This document shows, one piece after another, positions 1-19,454 of a stretch of 23,984 nucleotides of DNA. Made by a program: the position numbers and the translations under genes. The notes beneath the pieces were generated by a model, which was not told where the DNA came from, did no database searches, and saw nothing but the letters and a program-made list of their open reading frames with translations. The stretch is from positions 1-23,984 of IMG/VR virus record IMGVR_UViG_2740892370_000017. One strand, 5' to 3'. This stretch comes from a virus. Its lineage: Duplodnaviria; Heunggongvirae; Uroviricota; Caudoviricetes. How positions within the stretch are numbered: the first letter of the stretch is position 1; each line of letters begins with the position of its first letter.

Positions 1-273
1 ATGAAGCAATGGCGAGATGATATTAAACGGTTCTTTGCAACTTACTTCATGATTAATTACGAAACAGGAATGCTTGAATGGATTGATGGTGGAGAGGTTA
101 AGACAAGAGATGACGCTTACGGTAATCCAATGATTCGTTATGGCACTCGTGATTATTATGTGAAATATGTCATCTGGTTTTTGCATCATGAAGTTCAGGC
201 AACTAAAAAAATTATCTTCAGGGATGGTAATAAAAGAAATTGCCACCCAAACAATTTACTACTGGAGATTTAA
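1..273 (+). CDS. HNH endonuclease-like protein, C-terminal part (5' end cut by window edge)
   Basis: ORF runs from window start; C-terminal motif ...WFLHHE...IFRDGNKRNCHPNNLLL resembles the H-N-(N/H) core of HNH nucleases (H..DGN..N...NL). Stop TAA 271-273 overlaps next ATG (TAATG). Confidence 0.45.
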   Translation: MKQWRDDIKRFFATYFMINYETGMLEWIDGGEVKTRDDAYGNPMIRYGTRDYYVKYVIWFLHHEVQATKKIIFRDGNKRNCHPNNLLLEI

Positions 274-473
274 TGCTATGTATTAAATTCGAATATTTGA
301 CAGATAAAATGATTAAGCATGTATCAGACCTGCTCATCAAAGAAGATGGTTTCGGTGATGTTTGCAATCCAAAAGATATCTTCATTCACGCCACCAGCCC
401 AAATGAAACACTGAAAACAGCAGTTACAGCGGAATGGTTTGAACGAAATAAAGTAGAATTAGGCTATTGGTAG
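273..473 (+). CDS. hypothetical small protein (about 66 aa)
   Basis: ATG at 273 overlaps stop of upstream ORF (TAATG, translational coupling); track ORF 240..473 is same frame with an earlier, less likely start. No recognisable motif. Confidence 0.35.
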   Translation: MLCIKFEYLTDKMIKHVSDLLIKEDGFGDVCNPKDIFIHATSPNETLKTAVTAEWFERNKVELGYW

Positions 474-652
474 TCCGAGACTTTAAGAGAAATTAGAAAA
501 ACAGCTTCTCAGACGCTCTCAATCGCATTCTAACGCAAAAAACTATCTTATTTTAGGGTGGGTAATACCACTGTACAGGCTACCCCTGAAAAAGACTGTT
601 TAGCTCGTTACAGAGCGATTGAGGAGGTCTGGTAAAAAGGAGATTTTAGGAA

Positions 653-976
653 ATGAACAATTACGAATTACAGATTTTCGTTGATAGCGACACCGCTATG
701 ATGATTCAGGCTTTCACTGATGTAGGTGTTAGCATTGACTTTGACAGGCTGTTAAGGCTAATGGCTGATAACTCAGAAACAATTGAAGATTTTATTCAGT
801 CGGTGGAGTTTAACGAGCCTCGAATGATGCTACCAATTAAAGACAGCAACATGAAAAGATTGGTTATCGAGCAAACGAACAAATACAGCATTAGCCCTGA
901 AAGATATCTCAAGGCAGCTATAGCAATTTTGTACGCTGACAATATTTTGGTGACGGATTCGAAGGTGGTGCATTAA
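653..976 (+). CDS. hypothetical protein (107 aa)
   Basis: ATG 653 preceded by AAGGAG (637-642); AT-rich codon usage consistent with neighbours; no recognisable domain. Confidence 0.5.
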   Translation: MNNYELQIFVDSDTAMMIQAFTDVGVSIDFDRLLRLMADNSETIEDFIQSVEFNEPRMMLPIKDSNMKRLVIEQTNKYSISPERYLKAAIAILYADNILVTDSKVVH

Positions 977-1077
977 TGGGCTTAATAATTGCTTGGACGG
1001 CTTTGGGTTTATTTGTTGGTTGCTGGGTAGGTAATACGGTAAATAAGAATTGATGTTACCAATCTGTTAAAAAGCTG

Positions 1078-1106
1078 TTGACAAATAACCTTGAGCATGA
1101 CATAAT
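1078..1106 (+). promoter_or_regulatory. candidate sigma70 promoter (TTGACA -17 nt- CATAAT, with TG upstream of -10)
   Basis: TTGACA at 1078-1083, 17-nt spacer, CATAAT at 1101-1106 with TGa immediately upstream (extended -10 like). Followed by hairpin AGAGAG-aattg-CTCTCT at 1116-1132 and a leader of about 295 nt before the ATG at 1408. Confidence 0.45.
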
Positions 1107-1407
1107 TTTAATTATAGAGAGAATTGCTCTCTTATTTCTTTCAACAATTCCATCTACATCTAGGGATAGTTATTCTGAAAGGTGCAATGCTTTTCGCTAC
1201 ATGACCTCTTATATAACCTGAGAGGTCATCTCGAAAAGTACTCTTGTTCATTCATTATTGAATCCTTTGCCCTTCACAGAAATGTTTAGGGCTTTTTCAG
1301 TTTTTAAAAGCACACTTGGCAGGTTCTTGTTCAGTCAGACTCTTCACCTCTGATTGCTGAGTGTGCTTCTATAAATTGAAATAACAAATAAACTAAGAGG
1401 TGAACGA

Positions 1408-2109
1408 ATGATTCGAGATGAACATGAAATGATTATCGAAAACAAACCAAGTGCACTTGATATTCACGAATTAAGTTTGCGTGAATCTTTTGATAGAGCT
1501 TGGCGGGAATCACACGAAGTAAAAAGAAGTCCTTATATTCCACCAGAACCACTCGAGATTCCAAGAGTTGAAATTGATTTTTCGATGAATGAGGAATGTG
1601 AGCTTGATTTGAAACTGAAGCTACAACGCCGATATTTCCAAGCTATTAAAGACTCTCAAGAAGCAATGAGAAGTGTTTACGAGAAAATTCAGTCCAAGCT
1701 TGAAGACGAAATTGACGAAATGGCTATTTTGATGGAGCTTCAAACCAATTCTTATGCTTATTTCTCTCGACTAGACCGTGATGGTTGGGGGTATGACCCT
1801 GTAGAGATTGGTAAAGTGATTGCAGATTTACCAGAAGGTCAAAGAGTTGTTCGTACAGAAAGAGCTGTCAGAGCACCACATCGACTGTCTCTAATTGTTG
1901 CTGATAAATCACAAGCTGAGCTTGAAGAAATTGCCAAAGAGAAACTGATGAAAGCAAGAGAAAATGAGATTAATTTGCTGAAATCAAGACTGGCTAAGCT
2001 GATTAGTGACCATCAAAAAATCGCTAAGGAATACAAACAAGAGCTTGCACAGATTAGTAGCTTCAATGACTTTTTGAGTGTTCCACGAGAATTTAGTAAA
2101 ACTATTTGA
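1408..2109 (+). CDS. hypothetical protein (233 aa), charged and probably coiled-coil-rich
   Basis: ATG 1408 with strong SD AAGAGGTG 5 nt upstream; long ORF; C-terminal half rich in E/K/L heptad-like stretches; no recognised catalytic motif. Confidence 0.6.
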   Translation: MIRDEHEMIIENKPSALDIHELSLRESFDRAWRESHEVKRSPYIPPEPLEIPRVEIDFSMNEECELDLKLKLQRRYFQAIKDSQEAMRSVYEKIQSKLEDEIDEMAILMELQTNSYAYFSRLDRDGWGYDPVEIGKVIADLPEGQRVVRTERAVRAPHRLSLIVADKSQAELEEIAKEKLMKARENEINLLKSRLAKLISDHQKIAKEYKQELAQISSFNDFLSVPREFSKTI

Positions 2110-2131
2110 TTATGCATATGTGAGGTGATGA

Positions 2132-2347
2132 ATGATTGATTTGCAACAGCGTTATGAAACTATTAAGTCGGCTTGTGAAAACTTAAAGTTACAAGCCAAT
2201 CCAGCCTTAAGAATTAAAAGCAAACGTCAAGTTATCACCTCACACAAACCAAAAACACGCAAGATTCCAAAGTGGTGTATTGACCGTATCCCTTCCGATG
2301 CTCAAATCATAGGTGAAACGGAATTACATTATCTTGTCAGACATTAA
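2132..2347 (+). CDS. hypothetical small basic protein (71 aa)
   Basis: ATG 2132 with SD GAGGTGA; 22-nt gap after upstream gene; K/R-rich. Confidence 0.5.
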   Translation: MIDLQQRYETIKSACENLKLQANPALRIKSKRQVITSHKPKTRKIPKWCIDRIPSDAQIIGETELHYLVRH

Positions 2348-2374
2348 AAAAGAATTGGTTGGGTAAAAATCAAC

Positions 2375-2420
2375 GGGAGAGATTATCTGGATGGCAATCT
2401 AGGTAACTCTCCTTTTTTTT
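2375..2420 (+). terminator. candidate intrinsic terminator
   Basis: GGAGAG (2376-2381) ... CTCTCC (2407-2412) stem followed by T8 (2413-2420); loop is long (25 nt) so the structure is only moderately convincing. Lies between the 71-aa gene and the tape-measure-like gene. Confidence 0.4.
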
Positions 2421-2455
2421 GTATATGAACGCTTAACAGAGGTGAAATATGAACA

Positions 2456-4531
2456 ATGGCACAATTTAAAGTTGATAGTTTTATCGTTGAACTAGGCTTC
2501 AGCGAGAACGTTATTAAGGGCTTGCAAAGAGTTGAAAAGGCAGCTTTGCAGTCAGCACAAAGAATTGAACGTAATTTGAATAGGGCGTTTAAGGTCGATA
2601 CCAAGCAACTTGACAGCAATCTGACAAGTTCTTTAGGGCAACTTGAAAGGAAGTTTAATAAGACCTTTGACAAGATTGAGCAGCGTTTTAAAAACACTAG
2701 AGCGTTTAAGATTAAAACGGAAATTGAGGATACTTTAAAGCCACTTAGACAGCCAAGACAGCCACGAATTAGCGGAAACAGAGCAATCACAGCAGCTTAT
2801 TCAGCTAATATGACCAAGCTGAAAGGTCTTAACCCAATTGTCGAGAAATACATTAAGAGTCAGTTTTACGCATTAAGTAGTAAATCCAAGACACTTGGGA
2901 ACGAAGCTTTTAATCGTGAGTTAGCAAAGTTAAATCAAAATCTACGTGAAACACTTTCTAAGTTTAACAAGACCACCAGCAAAAATAATCACAGTGAAAA
3001 GGCTTCGAATGGTCTGGATGTATTAGCTACAAGTGCAATCAAAGCAGGTACAGCCATTTATAGTTTTCAGACAGCCTTAGAAGCTTACAGGCGGATTATG
3101 GAGATTGGTCTGAAAAAAGAAGCATCACAACGAGCGGCACAATTCGTTTTAGGTGATGAAGGTGCTAAACGAGCTACAGAATTTGTTAAGAATCTTGCTA
3201 ATAACACTGGTGTTGACCAGATTGAAACATTAAGCAGTTTTGCTAAGTTTTCCGCTGGTGCTGGTGATATGGATGCAGGCCAGAAAGAATCCTTATTTTC
3301 TAATGTGATTGGTACATCCAGATTAATGGGGCTAAGCACTGATGAAATTAACGGGATTTTAAAAGCTTTTGAGCAGATGGCGAGCAAGGGCAAGATTCAA
3401 GCTGAAGAATTACGCGGTCAGTTAGGGGACAGAATGGCAGGTGCTTTTCAGTTATTTGCCAGAAGTCTTGGGATGACTACGGAAGAATTAGACAAGGCCA
3501 TGAAAGACGGTAAGGTTCTTTCTAAAGATGTTCTTCCTAAAGTATCCGCTGAAATGGGAAGGATGATTGATAAAGCTGGTGGATGGGAAAAGATTATTAA
3601 CTCTACTCAGACGCAGTTAGGCCGCTTAAGTAATTCATGGAATAATAATCTGGCCTTAATGTTCGATGGTTCACAGGAAGGTCTGGTAGATTTTACAAGG
3701 TCACTGACTAATTTACTTAATTCACTAGGTGGTCAATCTAAAAATCTTGGTGAACATTTTGGCGACCTGATGAAAAGCATGTCAAACGGTATTGATGATT
3801 TAACCACGATTAGCTACCGAGTGCAGGGATTCTTTGACAGAGTGACCCTTGCTTACAGAGAATTAAATGACACTCAAAAAGCTGTAGCTGATGGTATCGC
3901 AAATGGCCTGTTAAGTGCATTAAAGGGACTTGCTGGTATTGTCGCTGTAAGGTCTGGTATTGGTGCTGTAGGTGGTATCTGGAACTTAATTAGGGCTATT
4001 TCCACGCTTGGAAATGTAGCAAATACAGCAGCAGGAAGAATTAATTCACGTTCCGGTAGTGTTGAAGGTGGTAAAGGAAAATTATCTGTAGCTGATGCAA
4101 TTACCAAAGTAATGATTGTCGGTATGGCAACTGATGTGATTAACTCCATTGTTAAACCGTTCTATGAACGTCAGATGAGTAAGTCAGATAATCCAATTGA
4201 CAAAGTTGTAAGGTCAAAGGTGGAACCTACAGACCAAGCATTGTCTGGTGACATGAACTCTTTAGCCGCTGTTTTATGGGCTATGGTTCAGGGCAAATCA
4301 AAAGATGTTCCACAGTTTTCACCTGAAGCATTAAATAATCTGAAAGGTCGAGTGGAAACATTCACACAAGATTTAAAGGTTATCAAGCCGTCAGTAAATA
4401 TTCAGCCTCAGACAATCAATATCACAACTCAGACGGTACTTGATGGAAAGGTTATTGATGAAAGAACCACATCGCATATTAATCGTATGCAGGAAGATAC
4501 CTTGATTAGCTCAGCTTACCCAGAGGAATAA
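2456..4531 (+). CDS. phage tail tape-measure-like protein (691 aa)
   Basis: Long, largely helical ORF; central segment ...GLSTDEINGILKAFEQMASKGKIQAEELRGQLGDRMAGAFQLFARSLGMTTEELDKAMKDGKV... matches the pattern of the conserved tape-measure core (G.S.D...AL....G.I.AEEL..QL.DR...A...A...G.TTEEL...M.DG.V) as I recall it from lambda gpH-type proteins; Gly-rich hydrophobic stretch LKGLAGIVAVRSGIGAVGGIW typical of such proteins. SD AGAGGTG upstream. Confidence 0.55.
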   Translation: MAQFKVDSFIVELGFSENVIKGLQRVEKAALQSAQRIERNLNRAFKVDTKQLDSNLTSSLGQLERKFNKTFDKIEQRFKNTRAFKIKTEIEDTLKPLRQPRQPRISGNRAITAAYSANMTKLKGLNPIVEKYIKSQFYALSSKSKTLGNEAFNRELAKLNQNLRETLSKFNKTTSKNNHSEKASNGLDVLATSAIKAGTAIYSFQTALEAYRRIMEIGLKKEASQRAAQFVLGDEGAKRATEFVKNLANNTGVDQIETLSSFAKFSAGAGDMDAGQKESLFSNVIGTSRLMGLSTDEINGILKAFEQMASKGKIQAEELRGQLGDRMAGAFQLFARSLGMTTEELDKAMKDGKVLSKDVLPKVSAEMGRMIDKAGGWEKIINSTQTQLGRLSNSWNNNLALMFDGSQEGLVDFTRSLTNLLNSLGGQSKNLGEHFGDLMKSMSNGIDDLTTISYRVQGFFDRVTLAYRELNDTQKAVADGIANGLLSALKGLAGIVAVRSGIGAVGGIWNLIRAISTLGNVANTAAGRINSRSGSVEGGKGKLSVADAITKVMIVGMATDVINSIVKPFYERQMSKSDNPIDKVVRSKVEPTDQALSGDMNSLAAVLWAMVQGKSKDVPQFSPEALNNLKGRVETFTQDLKVIKPSVNIQPQTINITTQTVLDGKVIDERTTSHINRMQEDTLISSAYPEE

Positions 4532-4620
4532 ACAATGTTAGAACTACTAATATTTATTGCCACACATGGCAATCTATTAATCTTTATCTAGTATGACGAT
4601 TCAACTATGAATAGTCGAAT

Positions 4621-4675
4621 GCTACGTGAAATCTTCTGAACAGATACCAACATCAAAAATTAGATTTCACGTAGC
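4621..4675. repeat. 14-bp perfect inverted repeat with 27-nt spacer
   Basis: GCTACGTGAAATCT (4621-4634) and AGATTTCACGTAGC (4662-4675) are exact reverse complements; not followed by a T-run. In the 173-bp gap between the tape-measure-like gene and the 254-aa gene. Confidence 0.6.
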
Positions 4676-4704
4676 TCACGCTTAACAGAATAGGAATAAC
4701 AACA

Positions 4705-5469
4705 ATGTTTGACACAAAGCAAATTAGATACTCAGGTAAAGATGGTATCTATTTTCACCTTAGAGATAATGTAGAATCTTTTCTTGCCTTAACAGCTACT
4801 GAACAGATGGACTATGACTCACCGATGATGGTGACAACTCAGGCTATGCAATCGGGGCAAACTATCACTGATAATGTTCAGAGAGCACCTAAGACCATCT
4901 CTATCAGCGGTGTTGTAGTGGTTGATTCGACGGGTTCAGTTCTATTAACCAGACAGGGGCAACTTGTAGAGACCTTTATTTCTACGGTTGAACAATGGCG
5001 AGACCAGAAGCAAATCATCACTATTGTTTGTAGAGATGGAATAGCTATCACTGATAGTATCATTACTCAGTTTAAAGCGAGTAAAGAGCATACCATTGCT
5101 AACGGTCTTCGTATTCAGATGACCTTCCAAGGTGTAGAGTTTCGTTCAATCGTAGGTCAGACTGATATTTCGGCTGCAACTGGCAAGACCGCTACCACGA
5201 ATGATGGTGGTGCTACCAGCAAAAAGAATACAGGGAACACTACAACGAGCCTTGGAAGCCCTATGCTGACCTGTAAAGAGCTTTTTAGCTATTCGGCAAG
5301 TGAGTTATCAGATGAAGCGCTAAAAGCCCGTGTAACGTGCTCTAAGAGCGTTAGCGTTAAAAATGGTGAGAGCACCTTCACAGCCTCAGCTAATGAGCAA
5401 GCTTCAAAGGTGCTTAAGTCGGGTAATGCTTTACGGAAGTTTAGTGTGAATCCTAACAAGCGCTACTGA
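4705..5469 (+). CDS. hypothetical protein (254 aa), Ser/Thr-rich C-terminal half
   Basis: Clean ORF immediately after tape-measure-like gene; weak SD; could be a tail-associated protein by position only. Confidence 0.55.
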
Positions 5470-5483
5470 CGATAGAATCTCAA

Positions 5484-7007
5484 CTATATGATAACCTCAT
5501 CAACATCTATTAAACCCCTCTCAGTGACTTCAGAAAGCGACTGTATAGCCTCTGTAACGTTGTCTGAGGGGGTTTCTGTTATTGGTAGGTCAATTAACTT
5601 ACCGTTGTGAAAAGTTACTTTGCAGCGACGTTTAGCGGTATTTAAAACTACCTCTTTAACAGCACTTTTGATTATCAGTTGTGCTTCAATCCTTCCCGCC
5701 TTTGTAGTCAAGTCACAATCAGACAAACAACCCACATCAATAGATTTAAGGCGTTGTGTCTCCTTCTCGATATCCGCATCAACCTGTGATAACTCATTCT
5801 TTAGTTGTTTTAGTTTGCTGGTAATAGCGGACAAGTCTTCAATTTCAAGTGATAGTTGTACCAGCTTTTCTATATTGCTTGAGATGTGTTCACGGTGTAG
5901 CCTCAACATATCTATGGTATTCGTCGTATCGCTATCAAATCGGTCAAGACGAGATAGCAGGGTAAGCAATGTACCATCGGTTTGCTTACGTGACAGCCCT
6001 TTAGCACTACAACGGTTTTCATTACGAAGAGGACAACGATAAATCCCGTTTCTTGTATCGCTAAAGCCTGTGATAATCAGAGCATGACCACATTCAGAAC
6101 AACGGATAACACCTTTAAAGAGATTCACACTCAATGGTTTACCTGAAACAGGTTTTCGACCGTAACGAGAATGTGATAGTTGTTGAACTTTGTAGAATGT
6201 TGTTTCATCTATAATTGCAGGATAATAACCAGCTATCTCCTCACAGCCTTTAGGGGTGAAGTAACCAATTACAGAGCGATTCTTCAGAAGGTCTTGCACT
6301 GAGGTTTGACCAAACTTACCCGGCTTATACTGGCTCATCGACTGGTGACCTTCATCATTAAGAGTTCTGACAATCTCCCAGATAGACTTACCCTCTAACC
6401 GTAGCTGAAAGCACCTCTTCACAGTCTCCACTTTCTCAGGTATCACAGAGAAGCTTTTACGGTCATCATTAAGCTTAAGCCATGCAGGACAACGTTTAGA
6501 AACTTTGATACCAGCTTTAGCAGCCTCTTTCTTGGCATCCCATGCAGCCTGTATACGCTCAGATTTACGCAAACTCTCCTCATGCGCCCTTTGCATTATC
6601 AAAATGCTTTTAATCAGAGCTAGCGGGTCTCTAAGAGATTCCCTTGTGTAATGTTCACCATCGGACAAGGTGACCACATCTACACCAGAACGCAGGATGT
6701 TTCTTAATAGCTCCGAAGCAATATCTATGTCTTGACGTGACAAACGGTCTAAACTCTCGATTAGTAGTGTATCACCAGCTTTAACAAGCCCTTTCTCGAT
6801 AGCGGTTAAGAAGTCACCTAAGCCACCTTTCAAGTGCTTACCAGTGAACCCACTCACCCCCAAATCACGGAAGGATAAATCTTGGTCAAGGTAGTACTCA
6901 GGATGAGCCTTAAGCCAGTCATTAACCATCTTAGACTGTCTGCGTAGTGAGTCGCCTTTGGCTTGTCGCTCAGAACTGAATCTGATGTAGCTGATTACAC
7001 GTTTCAT
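5484..7007 (-). CDS. large serine recombinase (resolvase/invertase-type catalytic domain plus recombinase and zinc-ribbon regions)
   Basis: N-terminus MKRVISYIRFSSERQ... has the Y.R.SS..Q catalytic serine motif of serine recombinases; 507 aa with Cys-rich CSECGH...YRC segment and C-terminal coiled-coil, typical of large serine integrases. ATG 7007 with SD GAGGTG. Confidence 0.85.
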   Translation of the reverse strand: MKRVISYIRFSSERQAKGDSLRRQSKMVNDWLKAHPEYYLDQDLSFRDLGVSGFTGKHLKGGLGDFLTAIEKGLVKAGDTLLIESLDRLSRQDIDIASELLRNILRSGVDVVTLSDGEHYTRESLRDPLALIKSILIMQRAHEESLRKSERIQAAWDAKKEAAKAGIKVSKRCPAWLKLNDDRKSFSVIPEKVETVKRCFQLRLEGKSIWEIVRTLNDEGHQSMSQYKPGKFGQTSVQDLLKNRSVIGYFTPKGCEEIAGYYPAIIDETTFYKVQQLSHSRYGRKPVSGKPLSVNLFKGVIRCSECGHALIITGFSDTRNGIYRCPLRNENRCSAKGLSRKQTDGTLLTLLSRLDRFDSDTTNTIDMLRLHREHISSNIEKLVQLSLEIEDLSAITSKLKQLKNELSQVDADIEKETQRLKSIDVGCLSDCDLTTKAGRIEAQLIIKSAVKEVVLNTAKRRCKVTFHNGKLIDLPITETPSDNVTEAIQSLSEVTERGLIDVDEVII

Positions 7008-7057
7008 TGTTCACCTCACCTAATAACCCCTAGATTGTATCGTTTTAGATGGTGTAT

Positions 7058-7516
7058 TTAAACGTGTCTAATAAAAATCACCCGATTAACGCCGCGCTGA
7101 TGTAAACCGCGATTAAGAGTTTGTTCCTCTTCCCCTTTGGCGAAAAACTGTGGATGGCGGACTTCCACACCATAATTAAATTCGCCAGGGAGAGAATCGA
7201 GAAAATGCCAAAGCGCAGGCAGCTCCCGTGGGCCGAATGTGGCAGGCAGTTGCAGCCAGTATTGCCCAATGCGCGGAGCCAACGGTGACATGCGGGTCAA
7301 AAATTCAGTCACTAAATCATCGCAATGTCGTAATGCTGCCTGATGCGAAATGGTCGCCGGAAACTTAAAACAGAAGCGGAAGTCATCTGTGGTCTGTTCA
7401 CGCCAGCGCAGGACAACCTCGGGTTTCGGCAGGGCGTAAAGCGTGGTGTTGCCCTCCACGCAGTTAACATGACGGGTATTGAAGGCTAACCCACTGATTT
7501 TAATAAGTCTCTTGTG
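7058..7516 (-). pseudogene. yecE: remnant of a chromosomal DUF72-family gene (probably yecE), truncated at both ends
   Basis: GC-richer ORF wedged between two integrase genes. Track start at 7459 is GTG and the frame stays open upstream to a stop at 7517-7519 with no ATG, overlapping the integrase 3' end. At the other end the ORF terminates a few codons after the composition switches to AT-rich sequence near 7075. Identification as yecE is from memory. Confidence 0.45.
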
Positions 7517-8799
7517 TCACTTTGGTGACCATGGGACATCATTGGGACATAATCTGCCAGCTTCTGATTCAGCATTGCGATCTGTTCTGCATTGCTGTCA
7601 GTCATCCATGCTCCGTATACATTGAACACCATCTGGGCACTTGCATGACCCATCTGGCTGGCAATGAAGCTTGGATTTGCTCCGGCAGATAATGACCAGC
7701 ACGCATAAGTGTGTCGTGACTGGTATGCCTTTCGATGCCTGATGCCTGCACGCTTAATAGCTGATTCCCATGAGTCGCCAATGGAATCTACCTTGTAGAT
7801 AAAACCTACCTGTTTGCTTTTTCTAACCACCTGGGGGTTAAATACGAAAGTACATTCATGATTCACTGAACGTCCATATTCACGTAGTTGAACCTTGATG
7901 TGGTGCTGCTTACCCAGTCTTGTCATTTCAGCCTGATTTTTCAGGACACTGATAGCGGGCTGGATAAGATGTATAACCCTGTTAGTACTTGCTTCAGTTT
8001 TAGGTAGAGTGAACTCATCGAGTTTCGTATAATTGCGCCGGATAGTAATTGTTCCTGCTTTCAGATCGATATCTTCCCAGGCCAGGGAGACCAGTTCACC
8101 ATGACGCATTCCTGTGTACACAGCCAATGACCACAGGTTTTTTGTCTGCTGATGTCGGCAAGCATCTATCAGGCGAATAAATTCGTCACGAGTTAGCGGA
8201 TCTGGCTCTGCCCTGGCTTTTTTAAGAGGCTTAATTCCCTCGAAGGGATTTGCTTCTAAGTAACCGTGATCTGCAGCAAACTGAAACATTCCAGCGATTG
8301 TCGTCATGTAATAATTTACTGTGACAACGCTTCGTCCTTTTACCGGAGCCTTACCTTTTGTTGGATTTTGGTGTCCGGTCAGCAAATCTTTCCTGATATA
8401 CAGCAATTCCTCTTTGGTCACCGTTGACACCAGTCTGCTACCTCCAATTTTCGGAACCATCGTTCTTGCAACGGATTCATAACGATTGAATGCATTTGCA
8501 GAGATTTCCATTCGTTTCAGATCCAGCCACTTTTCTTCAAGTTCTTTCACCGTAATTTCTTTTTTACTTACCCCAAAAGCCTGAAGGTTAGGGGAGTCAG
8601 GGAACTGTGCAGCATAATCAAAGTTTCCTGTGCGGATGGCAAAACATACCGATGTCCGCAGTTCTCCAGCGATCTTCCTGTTCTTGGCAGTGTCAGGGAC
8701 ACCAAGATTTTCCCTGACACGTTTACCTTTAAAATTAAACCAGATGCGCAATGTGCCACCGTGGTTTTCGACGCCTGTTGGATATTTGACTTTATCCAT
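7486..8799 (-). CDS. int: phage tyrosine integrase (lambdoid/Rac-like family)
   Basis: 437 aa; N-terminal ...PTGVENHGGTLRIWFNFKGKRVRENL... resembles the arm-binding domain of Rac/P4-like integrases; C-terminal catalytic residues present (R in ...GMRHGEL..., H-x-x-R in ...RHTYACW..., Y in ...VYGAWM). Confidence 0.9.
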   Translation of the reverse strand: MDKVKYPTGVENHGGTLRIWFNFKGKRVRENLGVPDTAKNRKIAGELRTSVCFAIRTGNFDYAAQFPDSPNLQAFGVSKKEITVKELEEKWLDLKRMEISANAFNRYESVARTMVPKIGGSRLVSTVTKEELLYIRKDLLTGHQNPTKGKAPVKGRSVVTVNYYMTTIAGMFQFAADHGYLEANPFEGIKPLKKARAEPDPLTRDEFIRLIDACRHQQTKNLWSLAVYTGMRHGELVSLAWEDIDLKAGTITIRRNYTKLDEFTLPKTEASTNRVIHLIQPAISVLKNQAEMTRLGKQHHIKVQLREYGRSVNHECTFVFNPQVVRKSKQVGFIYKVDSIGDSWESAIKRAGIRHRKAYQSRHTYACWSLSAGANPSFIASQMGHASAQMVFNVYGAWMTDSNAEQIAMLNQKLADYVPMMSHGHQSDTRDLLKSVG

Positions 8800-8854
8800 T
8801 GATACCTCCAGACGCCCAAGAGCGAAACGAGCTTACATACTTCATGGCATTAAA

Positions 8855-9091
8855 TCACCCAGGTTGTTTGTTTTTCATTGAAGCGACCCAGGCATCTATT
8901 GCTTTTCTGTTATACATACATTCGCTGGATGGCTTTGGATTACCATCTGGTGATACGTGAATATACTCTCTTCCTACCATCCAGCATTCTTTCCGGGCTC
9001 GGAGAATTGTGCCTGGTTTGAGCCCGGTAATTGCGATAAGAACGCTTTCACAAACCCATTCATTGGGAGCCAGTTGAATCACATTGCTCAT
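8855..9091 (-). CDS. xis: excisionase-like protein
   Basis: 78-aa ORF immediately upstream of int on the same strand, the canonical xis position; sequence resembles lambdoid excisionase-like small proteins as I recall them. Confidence 0.6.
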   Translation of the reverse strand: MSNVIQLAPNEWVCESVLIAITGLKPGTILRARKECWMVGREYIHVSPDGNPKPSSECMYNRKAIDAWVASMKNKQPG

Positions 9092-9099
9092 ACATTACC

Positions 9100-9246
9100 T
9101 CACACAACACTCAGCCCACGGCAGTGGCACCACACTTCAAACATTCGTTTCACAATTTCACGACAGTAGAAACCGTCAACATCTCGCGTCAGGTCATAGC
9201 GATTGCCGTAACGCTGGCGCACCCATAGCTCAAACGCTTTATTCAT
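9100..9246 (-). CDS. hypothetical small protein (48 aa)
   Basis: Not in the ORF track (too short). ATG at 9246 with SD GGAAG; reads MNKAFELWVRQRYGNRYDLTRDVDGFYCREIVKRMFEVWCHCRGLSVV; stop 9100-9102 lies 8 nt before the xis start. Tightly packed with neighbours. Confidence 0.35.
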   Translation of the reverse strand: MNKAFELWVRQRYGNRYDLTRDVDGFYCREIVKRMFEVWCHCRGLSVV

Positions 9247-9249
9247 TCT

Positions 9250-9492
9250 TTACTTCCTTTTCATGGCCCGTAATTTTTTCAGATGAGCTTCCTGCTCTGT
9301 TTCTGCCAGAATTTGTCGGTATTCCTGGTGATCAATCCGTTCAAACAGTTCATTGAAATCGTTTATTTTTACTGACTGTGTTCGCCCATCCATTCTTCTG
9401 TACAACACAGTGTTGTTTATGCAGCGAACAATTTTTACCGGGTAATCGGCATTGTCGGTATACAGTTGTCCCTGATTAATCAAAGAGAACAT
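9250..9492 (-). CDS. hypothetical protein (80 aa)
   Basis: Track ORF 9250..9615 overlaps the next gene; internal ATG at 9492 (MFSLINQ...) has SD AGGAG and removes the overlap. Confidence 0.5.
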   Translation of the reverse strand: MFSLINQGQLYTDNADYPVKIVRCINNTVLYRRMDGRTQSVKINDFNELFERIDHQEYRQILAETEQEAHLKKLRAMKRK

Positions 9493-9523
9493 TTTTTCTC
9501 CTGCTCTCTGAATAGCGAGAACT

Positions 9524-9895
9524 TCAGAGCCGTATGTTTGTAGCGGGTTCAATACTGATAATTTCTGCTGAGATAAGCATCCCGGCAAGCCAGAGCTCTC
9601 CGGACAGGTCTTCATCCTGGCATATCAGTTCGCCAATATTAATGGTGGCCATGATGTCTGTTTCCCCTGTACGCTCATCCTCGACTTCTTCATAAGGCAG
9701 CGTTGCGTACAGGCTTTCAATAGCGCAACTGATAACATCGAGTCCGGTCAGGTTGCCACCGACAGTGACTTCGAATGTTTCGCGGTATTCCCATAGCCCG
9801 AAAGTTAATCGAACGGTTTGTTTTGCCATGCGTCCGCATGACGTCAGATTTGGGTCATAGTTCATTATTTGCGGTTGAGTATTATGAGTGTTCAT
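9524..9895 (-). CDS. hypothetical protein (123 aa), acidic
   Basis: ATG 9895 with SD-like AGGGA; no recognised motif. Confidence 0.5.
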   Translation of the reverse strand: MNTHNTQPQIMNYDPNLTSCGRMAKQTVRLTFGLWEYRETFEVTVGGNLTGLDVISCAIESLYATLPYEEVEDERTGETDIMATINIGELICQDEDLSGELWLAGMLISAEIISIEPATNIRL

Positions 9896-9936
9896 CTGCT
9901 TTTCCCTTAGCCCGACGGTCTGCCGGGCATATTAAG

Positions 9937-10267
9937 TTATTTAACCTGGATAAATGGTGTATTGGCACCACTGGTCATGTATTGCGGCAGCGTGCCGTTC
10001 CATTTATTGATGGCTTCCAGCTCCACAACACCGGGGTTCTGACGCAGAGCTTCACCGCGTAAACGAATAGCATCGGCTTCAGCCTGGGCTTTTGTGCGAA
10101 TCGCATCAGCCTGTCCAGTAGCGACCAACCCCGACCACTTCACCGACGCCTTTGTCGTCGTCAAGTTTGTTGACTTTGATGCCCACATTACCAGGCTCAA
10201 CACGATCACAACCGACAAGGCCAATGGCAGGCAGAACAATGGCTAAAGAAAAAATAATTTTTTTCAT
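9937..10267 (-). pseudogene. lipoprotein gene remnant, frameshifted (N-terminal signal/lipobox in one frame, SPFH/band-7-like C-terminal tail in another)
   Basis: Frame A from ATG 10267: MKKIIFSLAIVLPAIGLVGCDRVEPGNVGIKVNKLDDDKGVGEVV... (signal peptide plus LVGC lipobox) stops at 10106; frame B (track 9937..10239) continues ...VATGQADAIRTKAQAEADAIRLRGEALRQNPGVVELEAINKWNGTLPQYM..., which resembles the C-terminal tail of prohibitin/HflC-type proteins. Total is far shorter than an intact protein of that type. Confidence 0.4.
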
Positions 10268-10452
10268 CTTTTATCCTTGGTGAAAGAAAGCCCCTTATAA
10301 ATGGCACAAATGCACGGCGGGGTCAGACACGCCAGAGCAAAGCCAGAAATCACTGCTACCGTATCCTTCATTGATATGAGGGCCGGAACGATTAATCCGT
10401 AAATACATGAGATAATTGCCAGTGATATAACTATTTTGAAATAAATGTTCAT
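10264..10452 (-). CDS. small hydrophobic membrane protein (62 aa)
   Basis: ATG 10452 with strong SD AGGAGG 5 nt upstream; two hydrophobic stretches; stop overlaps lipoprotein ATG as ATGA. Confidence 0.55.
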   Translation of the reverse strand: MNIYFKIVISLAIISCIYGLIVPALISMKDTVAVISGFALACLTPPCICAIYKGLSFTKDKR

Positions 10453-10512
10453 GGTCCTCCTGATGTATGCGGCTTGCCTTATTTAATTGCGTCATGGTTA
10501 ATTTCGTTTACG

Positions 10513-10905
10513 TCAGAATGGTTTTGTTGCCATCAGTTCGTAATATCCGGCGCTCCATGTGTCATATTTTCTGAACCATTTTTCTGTATACTGTTTCCTG
10601 GCGATGAGTCTGCGCAGTCGTCTGATTGTTCGCTGGTGTGCGCGGGTATACTCTGTGGTTGATTCTCCACGTTTCCATATCTCATTCCCGTTGAAGATAA
10701 AACGCTTGTCAGGATAGCGTTGCCGGAATCCTGAACGTTCAAAAGCGCGGGTGGTCATAAAGAATGCCAGGTAACGAATTGCCGTTTTTCGGGTGAGGCA
10801 TTTTTTTGTTCTTCCGTGGCGTGTTACAAAAAATAACGGGCCGACGGGTGTATCATGTTTCTGTAATGCCTGGTCAATGGCGCTGGCGGTGCGGTTGTCG
10901 ATCAT
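10513..10905 (-). CDS. hypothetical protein (130 aa), basic
   Basis: ATG 10905; ATGA overlap with upstream track ORF; no recognised motif. Confidence 0.5.
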   Translation of the reverse strand: MIDNRTASAIDQALQKHDTPVGPLFFVTRHGRTKKCLTRKTAIRYLAFFMTTRAFERSGFRQRYPDKRFIFNGNEIWKRGESTTEYTRAHQRTIRRLRRLIARKQYTEKWFRKYDTWSAGYYELMATKPF

Positions 10906-11091
10906 TTCTTTATTTCTCCCGAATAACGTTCATGACTCATTACTTCCCAGTTCCGGCCGTCGCCTTTCGATAACAGCCGCCAGCAACGGTTAACCTTCAG
11001 ACTGAGATATCCGGTGCGCTGTATCCGATGCGGAAATATCCGTCGGCATCGGTACAACAACAGGACCTGCAATGCCTGCCGGTGGATCCGC

Positions 11092-11307
11092 TCAGGAATG
11101 CGTGTTGCTGTTAATGCCACCGGTTTCCTCCTGAGCAGGTGCTGTTATCTGATACCCCGCTCTTTCTGCCAGCCGTATGAATGTATCCATGCTGGCAATC
11201 AGCTCGCCATCGCGGACTTTGCAGACACCTGTGACTTGGCCATTTTCAATTGTCATAACGATCTGCACTTTTTCGCGCACAACAGATACAGGGGATAAAT
11301 TAGCCAT
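11092..11307 (-). CDS. hypothetical protein (71 aa)
   Basis: ATG 11307 with SD GAGGA 8 nt upstream; protein-like composition. Confidence 0.5.
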   Translation of the reverse strand: MANLSPVSVVREKVQIVMTIENGQVTGVCKVRDGELIASMDTFIRLAERAGYQITAPAQEETGGINSNTHS

Positions 11308-11432
11308 CAGTTAATTCCTCCACTGGTATATTTTTCTTTCGCGTAATCAATAACCTCTTGAAAAAGGTTGTCTATAATTAACTTTCCGGTTTCAGTCAGG
11401 TATTCAGTATGTTGATTAATCCCGATAGCATT

Positions 11433-11666
11433 CTAGTATGCAGTGTGGATTTCGGTTTCACCCTCCACCCGGCCCAATTCACCACGGGTAATACCTTCGA
11501 AGCGTAACAGCAACTGGTTTATAAACTGTTCAGTTATTTCTATAGTCGCAATGTTCCCATCCGGAAGGTCAACAATAAGCAGATTACCACCTGTTTTACG
11601 TTTTATTCGATGGAGTGCCGCAACAGCTATACGGCGACGATATGTATTAATGGGTTCATATGCCAT
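11433..11666 (-). CDS. hypothetical small protein (77 aa) with Arg-rich N-terminus
   Basis: ATG 11666; N-terminal ...TYRRRIAVAALHRIKRK... is Arg-rich; sits just below a 200-bp AT-rich intergenic region where a leftward early promoter would be expected. An N-like antiterminator role is speculation. Confidence 0.45.
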   Translation of the reverse strand: MAYEPINTYRRRIAVAALHRIKRKTGGNLLIVDLPDGNIATIEITEQFINQLLLRFEGITRGELGRVEGETEIHTAY

Positions 11667-11865
11667 TTGTTATTTCCCGTATGCTTTACGCAGAAATAAG
11701 CAGGCAATATGCATGTAATTTTCACCGTGTTGTGCAATAAGACAGGCTGTTTTGTGTGATGTCTTATGTTTTATAAAAGTCATAATAAAGGCTCCAGTGG
11801 ATTAAGTGTGTGATAATCCCCGGCGATTAAGCCGTAATATATTGTTCAGCGATAATATGTTTTAT

Positions 11866-12066
11866 TTAACTGGATAGTTCTTTTTCAGTTGCTGCTTCAG
11901 CATAGCAACGTGCAAATTCAAGAACTTCATCACCTGTTCTTTTTATTGCATCGTTGTCTGACATTTGTAATACGACAACTGCGCATAATAAATCATGGAT
12001 ATTGTTTGCAAAGGAATCCGGTGCCAGGCATAAGCCTTCATACTTATCATGGATATTGCCAGTCAT
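11866..12066 (-). CDS. hypothetical small protein (66 aa)
   Basis: Track ORF 11866..12108 overlaps the upstream gene; internal ATG 12066 (MTGNIHDKYEG...) has SD AAAGGAG 8 nt upstream and starts 5 nt after the upstream stop. Confidence 0.45.
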   Translation of the reverse strand: MTGNIHDKYEGLCLAPDSFANNIHDLLCAVVVLQMSDNDAIKRTGDEVLEFARCYAEAATEKELSS

Positions 12067-12071
12067 TGTTG

Positions 12072-12743
12072 CTACTCCTTTGCTTCTGATTTTCCCGTTA
12101 ACAACCACACCAGGTCACAATTAAGCGCACTGGCCAGTGGTACTATCTGATCAGCAGGAACTTCACAGATGCCGCATTCCCAGTCGTTTATGGGGGCACT
12201 GTAGGTATGAATCATGCGGGCAAGATCAGCTTCAGTTAAGCCCAGTTTTTTACGGGCGCTTTTGATGCGTGCGCCAATACTTTCCACATGGACTTCAGGC
12301 GCATTTACGCGAATAGCTGACTCGCTGTTTTTTTCACTCAGCAGAGAAAGCGGATCGCATCCCAGGACGTTTGCCAGGGGGATAAGCATGCTGATGGTTG
12401 GTTCGTACTCTCCGCTCTCCCATTGCAGAATAATCTCTTCGTCAAGATCGAGTAGTCTGGCCAGTTCGGTGGTCGTCAAGCCGCAGGCTTCACGTTGGGT
12501 ACGGATTTTTCCAAAAAAGTGACTATGCGAAACCATAGCTTTTGCCTCACATAGTTTTTCTGCAAAAATTGATGCAGTTTCTTCTGTTTTTTGCAGGGAA
12601 CGCATCAGGCATCTGATTGCATTATAAACCCTCTCACTTTCTGCTCCGTTTTCTGACATGTAGGAATAGATCATTCCAAGCAGCGAGCCGCCTTCTTGTA
12701 TTTGTGCTGCAATTTCATCCATCACCTTAACTGCATGCTTCAT
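12072..12743 (-). CDS. double helix-turn-helix (XRE-type) DNA-binding protein (223 aa)
   Basis: Two HTH_XRE-like segments (...GLTTTELARLLDLDEEIILQWESGEYEPTISMLIPLANVLGCDPLSLL... and ...GLTEADLARMIH...INDWECGICEVPADQIVPLASALNCDLVWLLTG). ATG 12743 with SD AGGAGG. Lies immediately downstream of cI on the same strand. Confidence 0.7.
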   Translation of the reverse strand: MKHAVKVMDEIAAQIQEGGSLLGMIYSYMSENGAESERVYNAIRCLMRSLQKTEETASIFAEKLCEAKAMVSHSHFFGKIRTQREACGLTTTELARLLDLDEEIILQWESGEYEPTISMLIPLANVLGCDPLSLLSEKNSESAIRVNAPEVHVESIGARIKSARKKLGLTEADLARMIHTYSAPINDWECGICEVPADQIVPLASALNCDLVWLLTGKSEAKE

Positions 12744-12919
12744 ATGAGCCTCCTGTTGTTTTAATTTTACAATAGCTAAAGCGTTTGGTTATGTCAATCG
12801 CTATAGCTATGCATTTTGAGCAGCAAAGAACAGATTATGAGAGAAATGAGACGATACGTAGGGAGTTGAGATACAGGAAAGTAGAGCAGCTGCGCAATAC
12901 AGCTGCCGGTGATGTTGAC

Positions 12920-13624
12920 TTATCCGACCCTGTTATACTGGATTGACTGATGAATGAGAACTTTCCCCATTATGAATAGATGTTCTTCAGCTGATTCACT
13001 TATAAACCATTCCTTGTAGGCCGGATTGTCTGATATAACAGCAAGTTGCATCCCTTGCATTTGCAGGCGTTTGATATGGAAGGTGTGCCCAAAAATAAAA
13101 ACATAGATACCGTCAGTTTCAAAATTTCTGACGGATACGTCGACAAACACCTGATCTCCTGCACACAGAGTAGGAGCCATGCTGTCGCCATCAACTGTTA
13201 TCATCTTTATGATATTTGCTGGCCTGCTACAGAACAGACGTCTTGCGGCGTCATGTGAAAATTCTATAGCATGGACCGTTTCTGCAAAATCTGAAACAAG
13301 GAATGTTCCTGGTCCCGCGCTGGCAGCGATATCCAGGACTTCCACACGAAAAATATCCTTATCATTTTCCAGCGGGGAATATGATACCTGTGGTGTCGGA
13401 TTGCAGGATGTGCTTTCTTCTGGGGTCATAGGACCAACACCGTACGATAGCCACTCGGGGCGCACGTTCAGGGTATTGGCTATCTCCACAACTTTCCTGG
13501 AGCCTGTGGCACCATTAACCAGTTTATTTACGCTCGATTGAGCCATGCCAACCTCTCTGGCCAGTTTTCCCTGCGAGTATCCGCGGATAGTCATAGCTAA
13601 CTGTAGCCTGTCTGAAAAGCTCAT
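12920..13624 (-). CDS. cI: cI-like phage repressor (N-terminal HTH, C-terminal LexA/S24-type autopeptidase domain)
   Basis: From ATG 13624 (SD AAGGAGG): MSFSDRLQLAMTIRGYSQGKLAREVGMAQSSVNKLVNG... (HTH); C-terminal ...VDGDSMAPTL... and ...HIKRL... match the Ser/Lys dyad context of S24 peptidases. Divergent from the Cro-like gene. Confidence 0.85.
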   Translation of the reverse strand: MSFSDRLQLAMTIRGYSQGKLAREVGMAQSSVNKLVNGATGSRKVVEIANTLNVRPEWLSYGVGPMTPEESTSCNPTPQVSYSPLENDKDIFRVEVLDIAASAGPGTFLVSDFAETVHAIEFSHDAARRLFCSRPANIIKMITVDGDSMAPTLCAGDQVFVDVSVRNFETDGIYVFIFGHTFHIKRLQMQGMQLAVISDNPAYKEWFISESAEEHLFIMGKVLIHQSIQYNRVG

Positions 13625-13747
13625 AAGTCCTCCTTTTTCTGCCCTTTTAGTGTATCGCCTTAGCGATATATACACAAACCGCTTTTCCGCACATTGTAAT
13701 CGCTTTGATCAATCGCTATAGTGAATGGAATCAGGTTGGAGGTCGAT
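13625..13747. promoter_or_regulatory. cI-cro divergent control region with operator candidates
   Basis: 16-bp perfect palindrome TATCGCCTTAGCGATA at 13653-13668; additional ATCGC half-site copies at about 13697 and 13710; 13-mer TCAATCGCTATAG at 13708-13720 recurs at 12794-12806 upstream of the double-HTH gene. Confidence 0.5.
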
Positions 13748-14011
13748 ATGAAAAATGAAGGTATAGCCAAGGCTGTAGATATTGCGGGAAGCCAGATTGC
13801 TCTGGCTAGGCGTTGTGGTCGCGCGCAGTCAACAATTTGCGACTGGCTGAATGGGAAGAAAAAAATTTCTCCTGAATTTGTTCCGTCTCTGGTTAAGGCG
13901 GTCGATGGGAAAGTCCAGGCGTATGAATTTCGTCCTGATCTACCGGAGCTTTTCCCACACCCAAGCTTAGCGCACACAGAAGATGGAGTGTGCGAAGGAG
14001 ATAAACAGTGA
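13748..14011 (+). CDS. cro: Cro-like small HTH regulator (87 aa)
   Basis: ATG 13748 with SD GGAGG 7 nt upstream; ...IAGSQIALARRCGRAQSTICDWLNGKK... is HTH-like; divergent from cI across the operator region. Confidence 0.6.
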   Translation: MKNEGIAKAVDIAGSQIALARRCGRAQSTICDWLNGKKKISPEFVPSLVKAVDGKVQAYEFRPDLPELFPHPSLAHTEDGVCEGDKQ

Positions 14012-14715: not shown

Positions 14716-14734
14716 TTATGCTCACAGGTAACAC

Positions 14735-14914
14735 ATGCAAGTACTCAATCGCTGGTTCCGTGATGGAAGAGGGCGTCGCGTCCACGTTATACGCTGGGAG
14801 CCTGAAACACAGCGGGTTATTTACCTGCGTGATGGTTATCCGGATGAGTGCTTCAGCCCACTATGGTTGTTTCGTCGTGATTTTGTTGAGTGCGAAGCGC
14901 CACCAGCATATTGA
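14735..14914 (+). CDS. hypothetical small protein (59 aa)
   Basis: Not reported separately by the track. Frame from ATG 14735 reads MQVLNRWFRDGRGRRVHVIRWEPETQRVIYLRDGYPDECFSPLWLFRRDFVECEAPPAY, more protein-like than the overlapping frame of the 340-aa track ORF. Confidence 0.4.
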   Translation: MQVLNRWFRDGRGRRVHVIRWEPETQRVIYLRDGYPDECFSPLWLFRRDFVECEAPPAY

Positions 14915-15188
14915 TTCTGCAATTCCGGGACGTTACACTGCTCAGGCACCTTATAAAGCGGGTGCCGGGATTGGCGTCCTGAAACTTACAGAAGAGCATA
15001 ACCGCGCTCATGCGGTTTTTTCATGTCATGAGCATTGCTACGCCCAAATTATGGTGGGGCGTGCAGGGGCATCGCAAGATGCGCCGGGTTCTTCTGTGAC
15101 CGGTTACGCCAACCCTGTACGTCTCACCACCTCTGTGATTGGCGTCCCATGTGGTGAGTGTTTTAAACTCACAGAAGGGGCTGTCATC

Positions 15189-16850: not shown

Positions 16851-16867
16851 TTTTGTGGGGTGTGAAA

Positions 16868-19409: not shown

Positions 19410-19454
19410 TGGCTGAATTTTTTCTCCTGTGTTCATGCAATATCGTTCGCTGAG

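Follow-up and report, generated by a model that had tools for sequence, protein, structure and literature searches.

The first 7,075 positions of a 23,984-nucleotide stretch of viral DNA (IMG/VR record IMGVR_UViG_2740892370_000017, positions 1 to 23,984; hereafter 'the window') belong to a compact island in the Escherichia coli gene yecE, which carries, beside its own large serine recombinase, a diverged pair of myophage tail genes encoding a tape measure and a tube initiator. From sequence comparison, we consider it somewhat probable that this island is a satellite of virulent Felix O1-like myophages (Ounavirinae), resembling the PLEs (elements similar to phage-inducible chromosomal islands) of Vibrio cholerae, and that it builds chimeric tails. 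More broadly, the island may be the first member seen of an undescribed family of Enterobacteriaceae satellites that have strictly virulent Felix O1-like phages as helpers, insert at various chromosomal sites through serine integrases and divert tail assembly by substituting the tape measure and the tube initiator, a proposal that we regard as evenly poised. Full-text literature searches returned no description of a satellite of Felix O1 or other Ounavirinae, nor of a serine-recombinase island in yecE.

The tail pair carries this interpretation. The tape measure protein, recognised as tape-measure-like in an earlier note on this DNA and confirmed here, has 691 amino acids (aa) and scores 73 bits against TMP_3 (PF20155; cut-off 41). 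Its best phage matches all come from Ounavirinae, and it aligns end to end with the tape measure of phage phiSUSP1 at about 30% identity. Compared with the tape measures of four Ounavirinae of E. coli, Salmonella and Citrobacter, identity is 80-84% over aa 1-45, 42-44% over aa 231-400 (the TMP_3 core), 43-50% over the last 31 aa and 17-21% over the rest, and the island protein is 51-55 residues shorter than its phage counterparts (742-746 aa). The product of the following gene, a 254-aa protein left unidentified in the earlier note, proves to be a Dit-like tube initiator, with a score of 64 bits against PF21821 (cut-off 24). It is 62-71% identical to Ounavirinae proteins, and about 70% identical to the product of the gene directly 3' of the phiSUSP1 tape measure gene. 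The pair is adjacent in this phage, and its gene order agrees with that of the island. Against the four phages, its tube-like domain (aa 1-185) is 76-82% identical and its C-terminal extension about 40%. Among 50,697 phage records, 299-301 contain a homologue of the tube initiator, and essentially all of these belong to Felix O1-like phages (Ounavirinae). In the virion of phage Bas63 (PDB 9ndy), where the tape measure is gp17 and the tube initiator gp18, the latter, a hexamer, serves as adaptor between the trimeric hub and the tail tube, and the last 25 residues of the tape measure touch the hub and PA, a protein at the tip of the hub complex (PMC12609058).

Both genes are maintained. Among island alleles, the ratio of nonsynonymous to synonymous substitution rates (dN/dS) falls within 0.1-0.3 for tape measure and tube initiator as well as for a 233-aa island protein and the recombinase, with no broken open reading frame (ORF), and it stays near 0.2 along the whole length of the tape measure. 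By these measures, the tail pair, whose products in Ounavirinae seed the tail tube and set its length, is intact, evolves under purifying selection and retains phage-like interface regions. Neighbour-joining trees group the island tube initiators in a single clade, sister to Felixounavirus, Suspvirus and Mooglevirus and placed inside outgroups of Hafnia and Erwinia phages, while the island tape measures form one long-branched clade. Because the island proteins form clades of their own, apart from the phage proteins, the trees point to an old, single capture of tail genes with maintained function, unlike decay. The restriction of the tail homologues to Ounavirinae, together with a guanine-plus-cytosine (GC) content equal to that of the phage, ties the island to one helper lineage, a tie of relatedness and not of interaction.

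The full extent of the island was determined on contig JHEX01000020.1 (GCA_000695135.1; L010 below), which is identical to the window and on which window base 1 corresponds to position 7546. Comparison with the K-12 yecE gene places 11,111 bp between attL and attR inside E. coli yecE, which is interrupted at L010 3507/3508 and resumes at L010 14619 (window 7074). Window positions 1-7075 are the right 7 kb of this island, about two-thirds of it. The remaining left 4 kb, outside the window, encode a small serine resolvase (189 aa) and a Dam-type methylase, and further contain a non-coding region with many repeats as well as small ORFs (62, 184 and 93 aa), followed by attL. Leftward extension, which the earlier note had proposed, thereby found the second boundary 4 kb beyond the window, and the end coordinate of 7075 given there agrees exactly with the crossover dinucleotide AA at 7074-7075, a position fixed by two variants of the att site found in relatives. 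In E. coli A15, PEC122 and WP9-S17-ESBL-11, the island stands alone between the halves of yecE, with a length of 11.7-11.9 kb and an identical core order.

The same note had rightly seen that a large serine recombinase ends the element. The 507-aa protein has the domain layout of a serine integrase, with matches to PF00239 (4.7e-20), PF07508 (3.7e-15) and PF13408 (5e-07), but it does not point outward as had been stated: the gene lies on the minus strand and is transcribed from the island edge inward, convergent with the tube-initiator gene. The target site attB reads CTGTCT-AA-AATCACC, and no long direct repeat accompanies the insertion. The reconstructed attP is a 46-bp quasi-palindrome, symmetric around the AA at 16 of 22 positions, which fits the expectation for a serine integrase. 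A promoter-like site of the recombinase gene overlaps the att arm (Table 1), suggesting autoregulation in which bound recombinase would repress its own gene. Insertion into yecE is site-specific and effected by the large serine recombinase, and the element can occur in excised form with a canonical attP.

A degenerate attP pattern, which an integrated copy cannot contain, has a single match in the metagenome collection, the contig L014 (ERZ1090866 NODE-760), which comprises 11,473 bp of island sequence only, with no chromosomal flank, and in which the recombinase end is joined to the resolvase/Dam end via exactly the predicted attP. At L014 1-116 and 2940-2976, one end of the contig lies in four 22-23-nt iterons (GGTGWCATTTTGTC...), and a Nextera adapter is present at the other; these iterons may mark a replication-origin candidate or merely the point where the assembly broke. 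L014 supports, and does not prove, the existence in nature of a circular or concatemeric form of an island-family member. Its size equals that of L031, an E. coli relative, by coincidence, as the two sequences differ.

In composition, the first 7 kb had been described as distinct from everything to its right. The difference in average GC is real (39.6% in window 1-7074 vs 48.4% in window 7075-23984, with 51.8% in the K-12 flank and 39.8% in phiSUSP1), but it does not hold for everything, as the neighbouring prophage (see below) dips to 41-43% at 20.5-22.5 kb. In gene content, Pfam and PHROG searches with the proteins of the full 11,111 bp found no head, sheath, tube, chaperone, hub, fibre or lysis genes. 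Furthermore, no frameshift pair and no match to a tail tube, sheath or chaperone was found among the genes upstream of the tape measure gene in Pfam, PHROG or the phage records, bearing out the earlier observation that this gene lies outside a normal tail module. The remaining core proteins have no match in the 50,697 phage records or the phiSUSP1 genome, except for HNH/AP2 homing-endonuclease-type genes. Pfam domain searches of the island proteins showed no conjugation, mobilisation, relaxase or oriT-associated genes, and no defence model of PADLOC-DB 2.0 matches the island core genes, the matches being limited to the Dam gene (orphan methyltransferase) and the small resolvase (a weak CARF model).

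The island has its own integrase and lacks a full virion gene set, as a phage satellite would. An ordinary prophage arm is ruled out, including the right arm of a complete siphovirus prophage that the earlier note had weighed: the left boundary lies 4 kb beyond the window, those 4 kb contain no tail genes or further structural genes, and the tail pair is of myovirus type. Among the interpretations offered in that note, a satellite-like element is the one that the evidence favours, and the reuse of a tape-measure-like domain by an island is descriptively correct; its third proposal, a decayed low-GC prophage, fares poorly for reasons given below.

The arrangement of the tail pair can be read as that of a gated late module, placed behind a terminator and a palindromic control module. 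The apparent terminator previously noted ahead of the tape measure gene is confirmed as a stable hairpin followed by a U-run (Table 1). A hairpin and T-run occupy the same place in six E. coli/Citrobacter lineages; both islands of Mangrovibacter have them there as well, differing in sequence. The control module, here termed the cis module, combines a palindrome with arms CTACGTGAAA/TTTCACGTAG and the 12-mer ACGCTTAACAGA, and is found before the tube-initiator gene in every E. coli and Citrobacter lineage. In the relatives L003 (~11094) and L015 (~6304) it stands ahead of the tape measure gene, the terminator being replaced in some lineages, and L010 has a third copy close to its left end (3833-3925). 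In the window, a remnant of the 12-mer is found ahead of the tape measure gene, at 2429-2440. Because changes in the arms between lineages are not compensatory, the cis module looks like a candidate protein-binding site rather than an RNA hairpin.

A compact layout of 10.5-12 kb in which the tail pair lies at one end is shared by at least five lineages and four genera, which differ in recombinase and insertion site. For example, the E. coli islands L015 and L031 have the same core as the window, lie next to tonB and encode a recombinase only 35% identical. A relative in Citrobacter freundii has its recombinase at the opposite end and a 317-aa HTH_36 protein in place of the 184-aa gene, and further carriers are E. 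albertii, another Citrobacter and Shigella flexneri. Mangrovibacter yixingensis harbors two distant relatives (L029 and L030) of ~10.5 kb each at different loci. Both encode a large serine recombinase and a small resolvase together with a tape measure of 707-709 aa and a tube initiator of 253-254 aa, the latter ~40% identical to that of the window. The free-form contig L014 shares with the window the yecE-type recombinase (93% identity), but its tape measure is only 47% and its 233-aa protein only 26% identical. As these comparisons indicate, modules are shuffled between island lineages. The family is distributed broadly but unevenly: among 5,426 complete E. coli genomes, 492 give matches to the 7.1-kb query and 257 to the island-specific segment encoding the 233-aa and 71-aa proteins, always on the chromosome and in at most three copies per genome. 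Many E. coli genomes (H167-H197) keep only the 71-aa end of this segment, beside a transposase gene; judging from such cases, disrupted or partly deleted island copies are common in E. coli. Identity of the island with SpLE2 of O157:H7 Sakai was considered and dropped, the yecE gene of Sakai being intact.

Ounavirinae are virulent phages, and the life cycle that we propose for the island depends on their infection. In an uninfected cell, the tail pair would be silent. Infection by a Felix O1-like phage would activate the island, which would excise and replicate, starting at the repeat-rich region left of the window. The island-encoded tape measure and tube initiator would then join the hub, tube, sheath and fibres made by the phage to form chimeric tails. 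The helper, which would bear a cost, would also provide the heads in which the island DNA is packaged and transduced. Because the island tape measure is 51-55 residues shorter, the chimeric tails are expected to be shorter as well, by ~7% if tape measure length sets the scale (691 vs 742-746 residues). The ORFans of the island (107, 233, 71, 184 and 93 aa) and a candidate RNA of 190 nt might supply regulation, replication and hijacking functions. We infer all of these steps, namely activation, excision, replication, chimeric assembly, packaging, transduction and helper cost, from the sequences compared here.

Several observations weigh against this satellite interpretation. In IMG/VR, the attP pattern has no matches, all six contigs with the island are integrated copies beside yecE or a prophage, and no evidence of packaging emerged. 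L014 is the sole free-form contig; it stems from a metagenome assembly of 6x coverage and is a divergent relative, not the island of the window. Among the island proteins and sequence, no small terminase, pac site, capsid-size redirector or replication initiator was recognised, nor was a tail assembly chaperone, which is present in all PLEs. The candidate origin consists of repeats only, namely two 48-nt copies 95 bp apart in L010 and the four iterons in L014, and equivalent repeats are weak in the Citrobacter and Mangrovibacter islands. The tube initiator shows no sign of tracking its host, the Citrobacter island copy being no closer to Citrobacter phages than to E. coli phages. A promoter common to island and helper was not found, as in phiSUSP1 both ACGCTTAACAGA and the palindrome CTACGTGA are either missing or no more frequent than by chance. 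Likewise, the candidate RNA is not supported as an antisense regulator of the phage, its longest complementarity to phiSUSP1 being 13 nt, within the range of shuffled controls. Finally, insertion sequences disrupt some of the E. coli island copies.

The best-surviving alternative is that of a defence island without transduction of its own. In the Felix O1-like hub, the island-encoded tape measure and tube initiator would serve as decoy or dominant-negative subunits, blocking tube polymerisation and yielding tail-less or defective particles, so that the clonal population would be protected; the recombinase would explain only the original acquisition. We rate this as a minority possibility. Blocking of tail assembly is an established strategy, used by Tai in prophages, phage-inducible chromosomal islands (PICIs) and P4-like elements (PMC11364771) and likewise by Rta of PLE11 (PMC12987554), yet the known inhibitors are single small proteins and not full-length structural homologues. 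The combination of kept interface regions with a diverged tape measure interior suits a poison subunit equally well, but a whole 691-aa tape measure held at a dN/dS of ~0.2, together with a full tube initiator, exceeds the needs of a plug. Packaging or capsid functions were not recognised among the island proteins, as a defence island would predict; on the other side, the core genes match no PADLOC model. The signs of mobility (free attP, several sites and genera, shuffling) in the absence of conjugation genes would moreover leave transfer unexplained. In PLEs both roles coexist, and defence is hence partly a sub-case of the satellite interpretation.

It is highly improbable that the island is a decayed prophage or otherwise inert remnant, its tail genes being left over from a temperate Felix O1-like relative or captured by chance, with no present role. 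Its phage-like composition, the phage origin of its recognisable content and the insertion sequences just mentioned would suit such a remnant. Against it stand the intact ORFs with their dN/dS of 0.1-0.3, the clean attL and attR, the same compact architecture in the lineages and genera listed above, a terminator gate before the tape measure gene that is conserved out to Mangrovibacter, the old clades formed by the island tail proteins and the existence of a free attP form; the other core genes, furthermore, lack phage homologues, and the Ounavirinae are virulent. Least probable of all is an element moved by another route, such as conjugative mobilisation or generalised transduction, with tail proteins that serve, for example, superinfection exclusion at DNA entry: the helper of the island is putative, and tape measure proteins do take part in genome entry and are targeted by exclusion systems, a matter treated in HK97 studies that PMC12609058 cites, but no gene of a relaxase, of transfer or associated with oriT came up in Pfam domain searches, it is not obvious what a cytoplasmic tube initiator would do in exclusion, and the strict restriction to one subfamily together with the phage gene order points to assembly with the parts of that phage.

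Table 1. Island features within the window (positions of the window; L010 positions where indicated)
Feature	Position	Strand	Evidence and remarks
HNH-like ORF, complete, 90 aa	1..273	+	PF13392 HNH_3, weak; phrog_959; L010 7546-7818; ATG at base 1
66-aa ORFan, kept across the island family	273..473	+	Gene call L010 7818-8018
107-aa ORFan	653..976	+	C-terminal half ribbon-helix-helix-like, by eye only
25-codon ORF, hydrophobic peptide MGLIIAWTALGLFVGCWVGNTVNKN	976..1053	+	Start-stop coupling (TAATG) to the 107-aa gene
Sigma-70-type promoter, TTGACA-17-(TG)CATAAT	1078..1106	+	11/12 matches; hexamers nearly invariant in 8 island lineages
Candidate non-coding RNA, ~190 nt	1113..1304	+	Minimum free energy -54.5 kcal/mol, z -4.9
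233-aa island-specific protein	1408..2109	+	Mostly long helices predicted; conserved central DRDGWGYD motif
71-aa basic protein	2132..2347	+	N-terminal helix, basic linker, small beta domain (AlphaFold2, mean predicted local distance difference test (pLDDT) 79)
Intrinsic terminator, putative gate of the tail pair	2375..2420	+	17-bp hairpin, -22.6 kcal/mol, z -5.7, then U8
Tape measure protein, 691 aa, diverged Ounavirinae homologue	2456..4531	+	PF20155 3e-20; phrog_4036 7e-98; 9ndy_F 4e-76
cis module	4621..4689	+	Perfect 14-nt inverted repeat GCTACGTGAAATCT, 27-nt gap, AGATTTCACGTAGC, then ACGCTTAACAGA
Tube initiator (Dit-like), 254 aa	4705..5469	+	PF21821; phrog_3721 2e-126; Bas63 gp18, 9ndy_A 1e-101
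Large serine recombinase, island integrase, 507 aa	5484..7007	-	Resolvase + Recombinase + Zn_ribbon_recom; phrog_95 integrase 3e-80
Promoter-like site of the recombinase, TTTAAA-17-TACAAT	7034..7062	-	-35 hexamer inside the att arm
attR: island-side half-site GTGTATTTAAACGTGTCTAATA + crossover AA, then yecE	7052..7075	.	attL/attR vs K-12 yecE

Among the smaller genes (Table 1), the partial HNH nuclease of the earlier note is in fact a complete ORF, and its nuclease assignment is weak, the HNH_3 match of 23.5 bits falling below the cut-off of 24.8. The adjacent 66-aa ORFan has no Pfam or PADLOC matches. The 107-aa ORFan matches nothing in Pfam, PHROG or the 50,697 phage records; it has 3,459 close relatives, of which the best 120 listed all belong to Escherichia or Shigella. 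The 25-codon ORF coupled to it might encode a small membrane peptide or a toxin-like product, and hydrophobic mini-ORF counterparts occur in other lineages (alignment A3). In the 233-aa and 71-aa proteins, no motif had been recognised. The former has no match in Pfam, PHROG, PADLOC or PDB; an exhaustive profile search among 1.84 billion proteins returned just 12 representative clusters, its AlphaFold2 model is poor (pLDDT 58) and its dN/dS is 0.15-0.2. The family of the latter is confined to Escherichia, Shigella, Citrobacter and Kluyvera, and its predicted model, of fair quality, has no fold match in PDB or BFVD. An Rta-like inhibitor was considered for the 71-aa protein and set aside, given this lack of a fold match and of any Vibrio relative.

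At its left end, the island has a variable slot for cargo (L010 3980-5723; L001 15712-16545; L003 5726-6250), occupied either by the small resolvase and the Dam methylase or by a 277-aa membrane/coiled-coil protein, which an AP2-type homing-endonuclease-like gene accompanies in some cases; the 277-aa protein matches no PADLOC model. The repeat-rich non-coding region left of the window (L010 5750-6200; L001 18265-18554) lies upstream of the operon of the 184-aa gene. Two 48-nt copies 95 bp apart are present in both L010 and L001, and a 13-nt tandem array (GGTTAAGAAGGTC) in L001 only. In Citrobacter relatives, the 317-aa HTH_36 protein is encoded at this position. The 184-aa protein was rejected as a replication initiator, having no similarity to this HTH_36 protein or to any PDB entry.

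The candidate RNA sits in a 430-bp non-coding stretch and comprises a 5' hairpin with compensatory changes, a conserved GTGCAATGCTTT, a long hairpin and a terminator formed by GCCCT..AGGGC and a U-run. In this region the DNA of L010 and L014 is ~91% identical, whereas the flanking 233-aa proteins share just 26% identity; recombinase and left-end segments aside, the candidate RNA is among the best-conserved DNA between the two. No Rfam family matches inside the island, the candidate RNA included.

Beyond the island, the same yecE gene holds a second element at window 7468-23984, separated from the island by 394 bp, with a yecE fragment (7076-7467) in between. This is a lambdoid prophage of the Shiga toxin (Stx)-converting type known to use yecE; yecE has thus been hit twice, by two unrelated integrases. 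The prophage encodes a 437-aa tyrosine integrase (7486-8799, minus strand), a cI-like repressor, O/P-like replication proteins, DnaB, a Q-like protein and a DNA methylase, and is 90-91% identical over about half its length to Stx2a- and Stx2d-converting and non-Stx 'PPyecE' phages. At 14946-15134 (plus strand) it carries Rfam matches to isrK (RF01394, 61 bits) and C4 antisense RNA (RF01695, 80 bits), both above the gathering score, which together form a P1/P7-type immunity RNA pair. Prophage finders (IMG/VR) merge the island with this Stx-type prophage, and PGAP names the island tail genes 'tape measure protein' and 'phage baseplate protein'. Owing to such phage labels and to this merging, the family has been hidden in plain sight.

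Satellites of virulent phages are known mainly from PLEs and ICP1 in cholera, where they shape epidemics. If our interpretation is true, chimeric-tail piracy, so far known only for Vibrio PLEs (2026), would become a general strategy, and a tractable E. coli model would be at hand for which the structure of the helper virion is solved (Bas63). The step governed by tape measure and tube initiator would be a control point for tail piracy, and the solved structure aids the design of tests. There are also practical implications, as Ounavirinae are widely used in typing, biocontrol and therapy cocktails against Salmonella and E. coli, and phage yield could be lowered, or host range shifted, by an island family that ~5-9% of the complete E. 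coli genomes carry.

The closest relatives of the tail pair are found in the tail module of Ounavirinae themselves (Bas63, phiSUSP1 and Felix O1 relatives), whose genes are direct homologues in the same order. The phage pair, however, is embedded in a module of sheath, tube, chaperones, hub, spike and wedges and has overlapping stop and start codons, whereas the island pair stands alone, with a terminator ahead and a 173-bp spacer containing the control module between its genes. The Tai systems and PLE11 Rta resemble the island as mobile-element functions aimed at phage tail assembly; they are single small inhibitors without homology to tail structural proteins, whereas the island candidates are full-length structural homologues.

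Among phage satellites, PICIs and their capsid-forming variants (cf-PICIs) are chromosomal islands of similar size in the same hosts and depend on helper tails, and some cf-PICIs have putative tape measure genes (PMC12987554). They differ in relying on a tyrosine integrase, pri-rep, small-terminase or full capsid modules and temperate helpers; Pfam and PHROG searches of the island proteins found no tyrosine integrase, primase-replicase, small terminase, capsid module or sid/psu/delta gene, so that the island fits neither these two groups nor the P4-like satellites. The EPIPs of Mycolicibacterium, described in a preprint, are satellite candidates that likewise combine a serine integrase with a tape measure and alter tail length relative to the helper. 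In contrast to the island, their helper is a temperate siphovirus prophage, they have been isolated as particles, and they carry small terminase, head-tail connector and scaffold/capsid-type genes, of which the island has none (PMC12822802).

The likeness to PLEs goes furthest. PLEs are satellites of the virulent myophage ICP1 that integrate via a large serine recombinase, and they encode a tape measure, a chaperone and a baseplate hub protein (20%, 20% and 41% identical to those of ICP1) that give rise to chimeric tails; deletion of the PLE tape measure cuts transduction by 96-99.9% (PMC12987554). The same study noted that PLE-like elements from other vibrios, as well as some cf-PICIs (Extended Data Fig. 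10), have tape measure genes, with no mention of the present island family. Like a PLE, the island is small (11 kb vs ~18 kb for a PLE; about one-eighth of the presumed helper genome), uses a serine recombinase as integrase, implies a virulent myophage as helper and otherwise consists mostly of ORFans. Its own diverged tape measure is joined by a baseplate-proximal tail protein, with the tape measure far diverged and the hub-side protein less so, as among the 20-41% identities between PLE and ICP1, and its conserved small RNA candidate parallels SviR. The differences concern the host (Enterobacteriaceae), the phage (Ounavirinae) and the insertion sites (yecE or next to tonB, vs superintegron repeats in V. 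cholerae), as well as the presence of a tube initiator instead of a hub protein and the lack of a recognisable tail assembly chaperone. Homology to PLE genes was not detected: PDB searches with the 233-aa profile and the 184-aa protein gave no matches in a database that includes the PLE1 chaperone (5IR0), and the 71-aa family has no Vibrio member. Moreover, PLE tails have been demonstrated experimentally, whereas the island is described here from its DNA. With its site, host and helper family differing and its chaperone unrecognised, the island is not filed here as a PLE, yet on present evidence it would seem to work like one.

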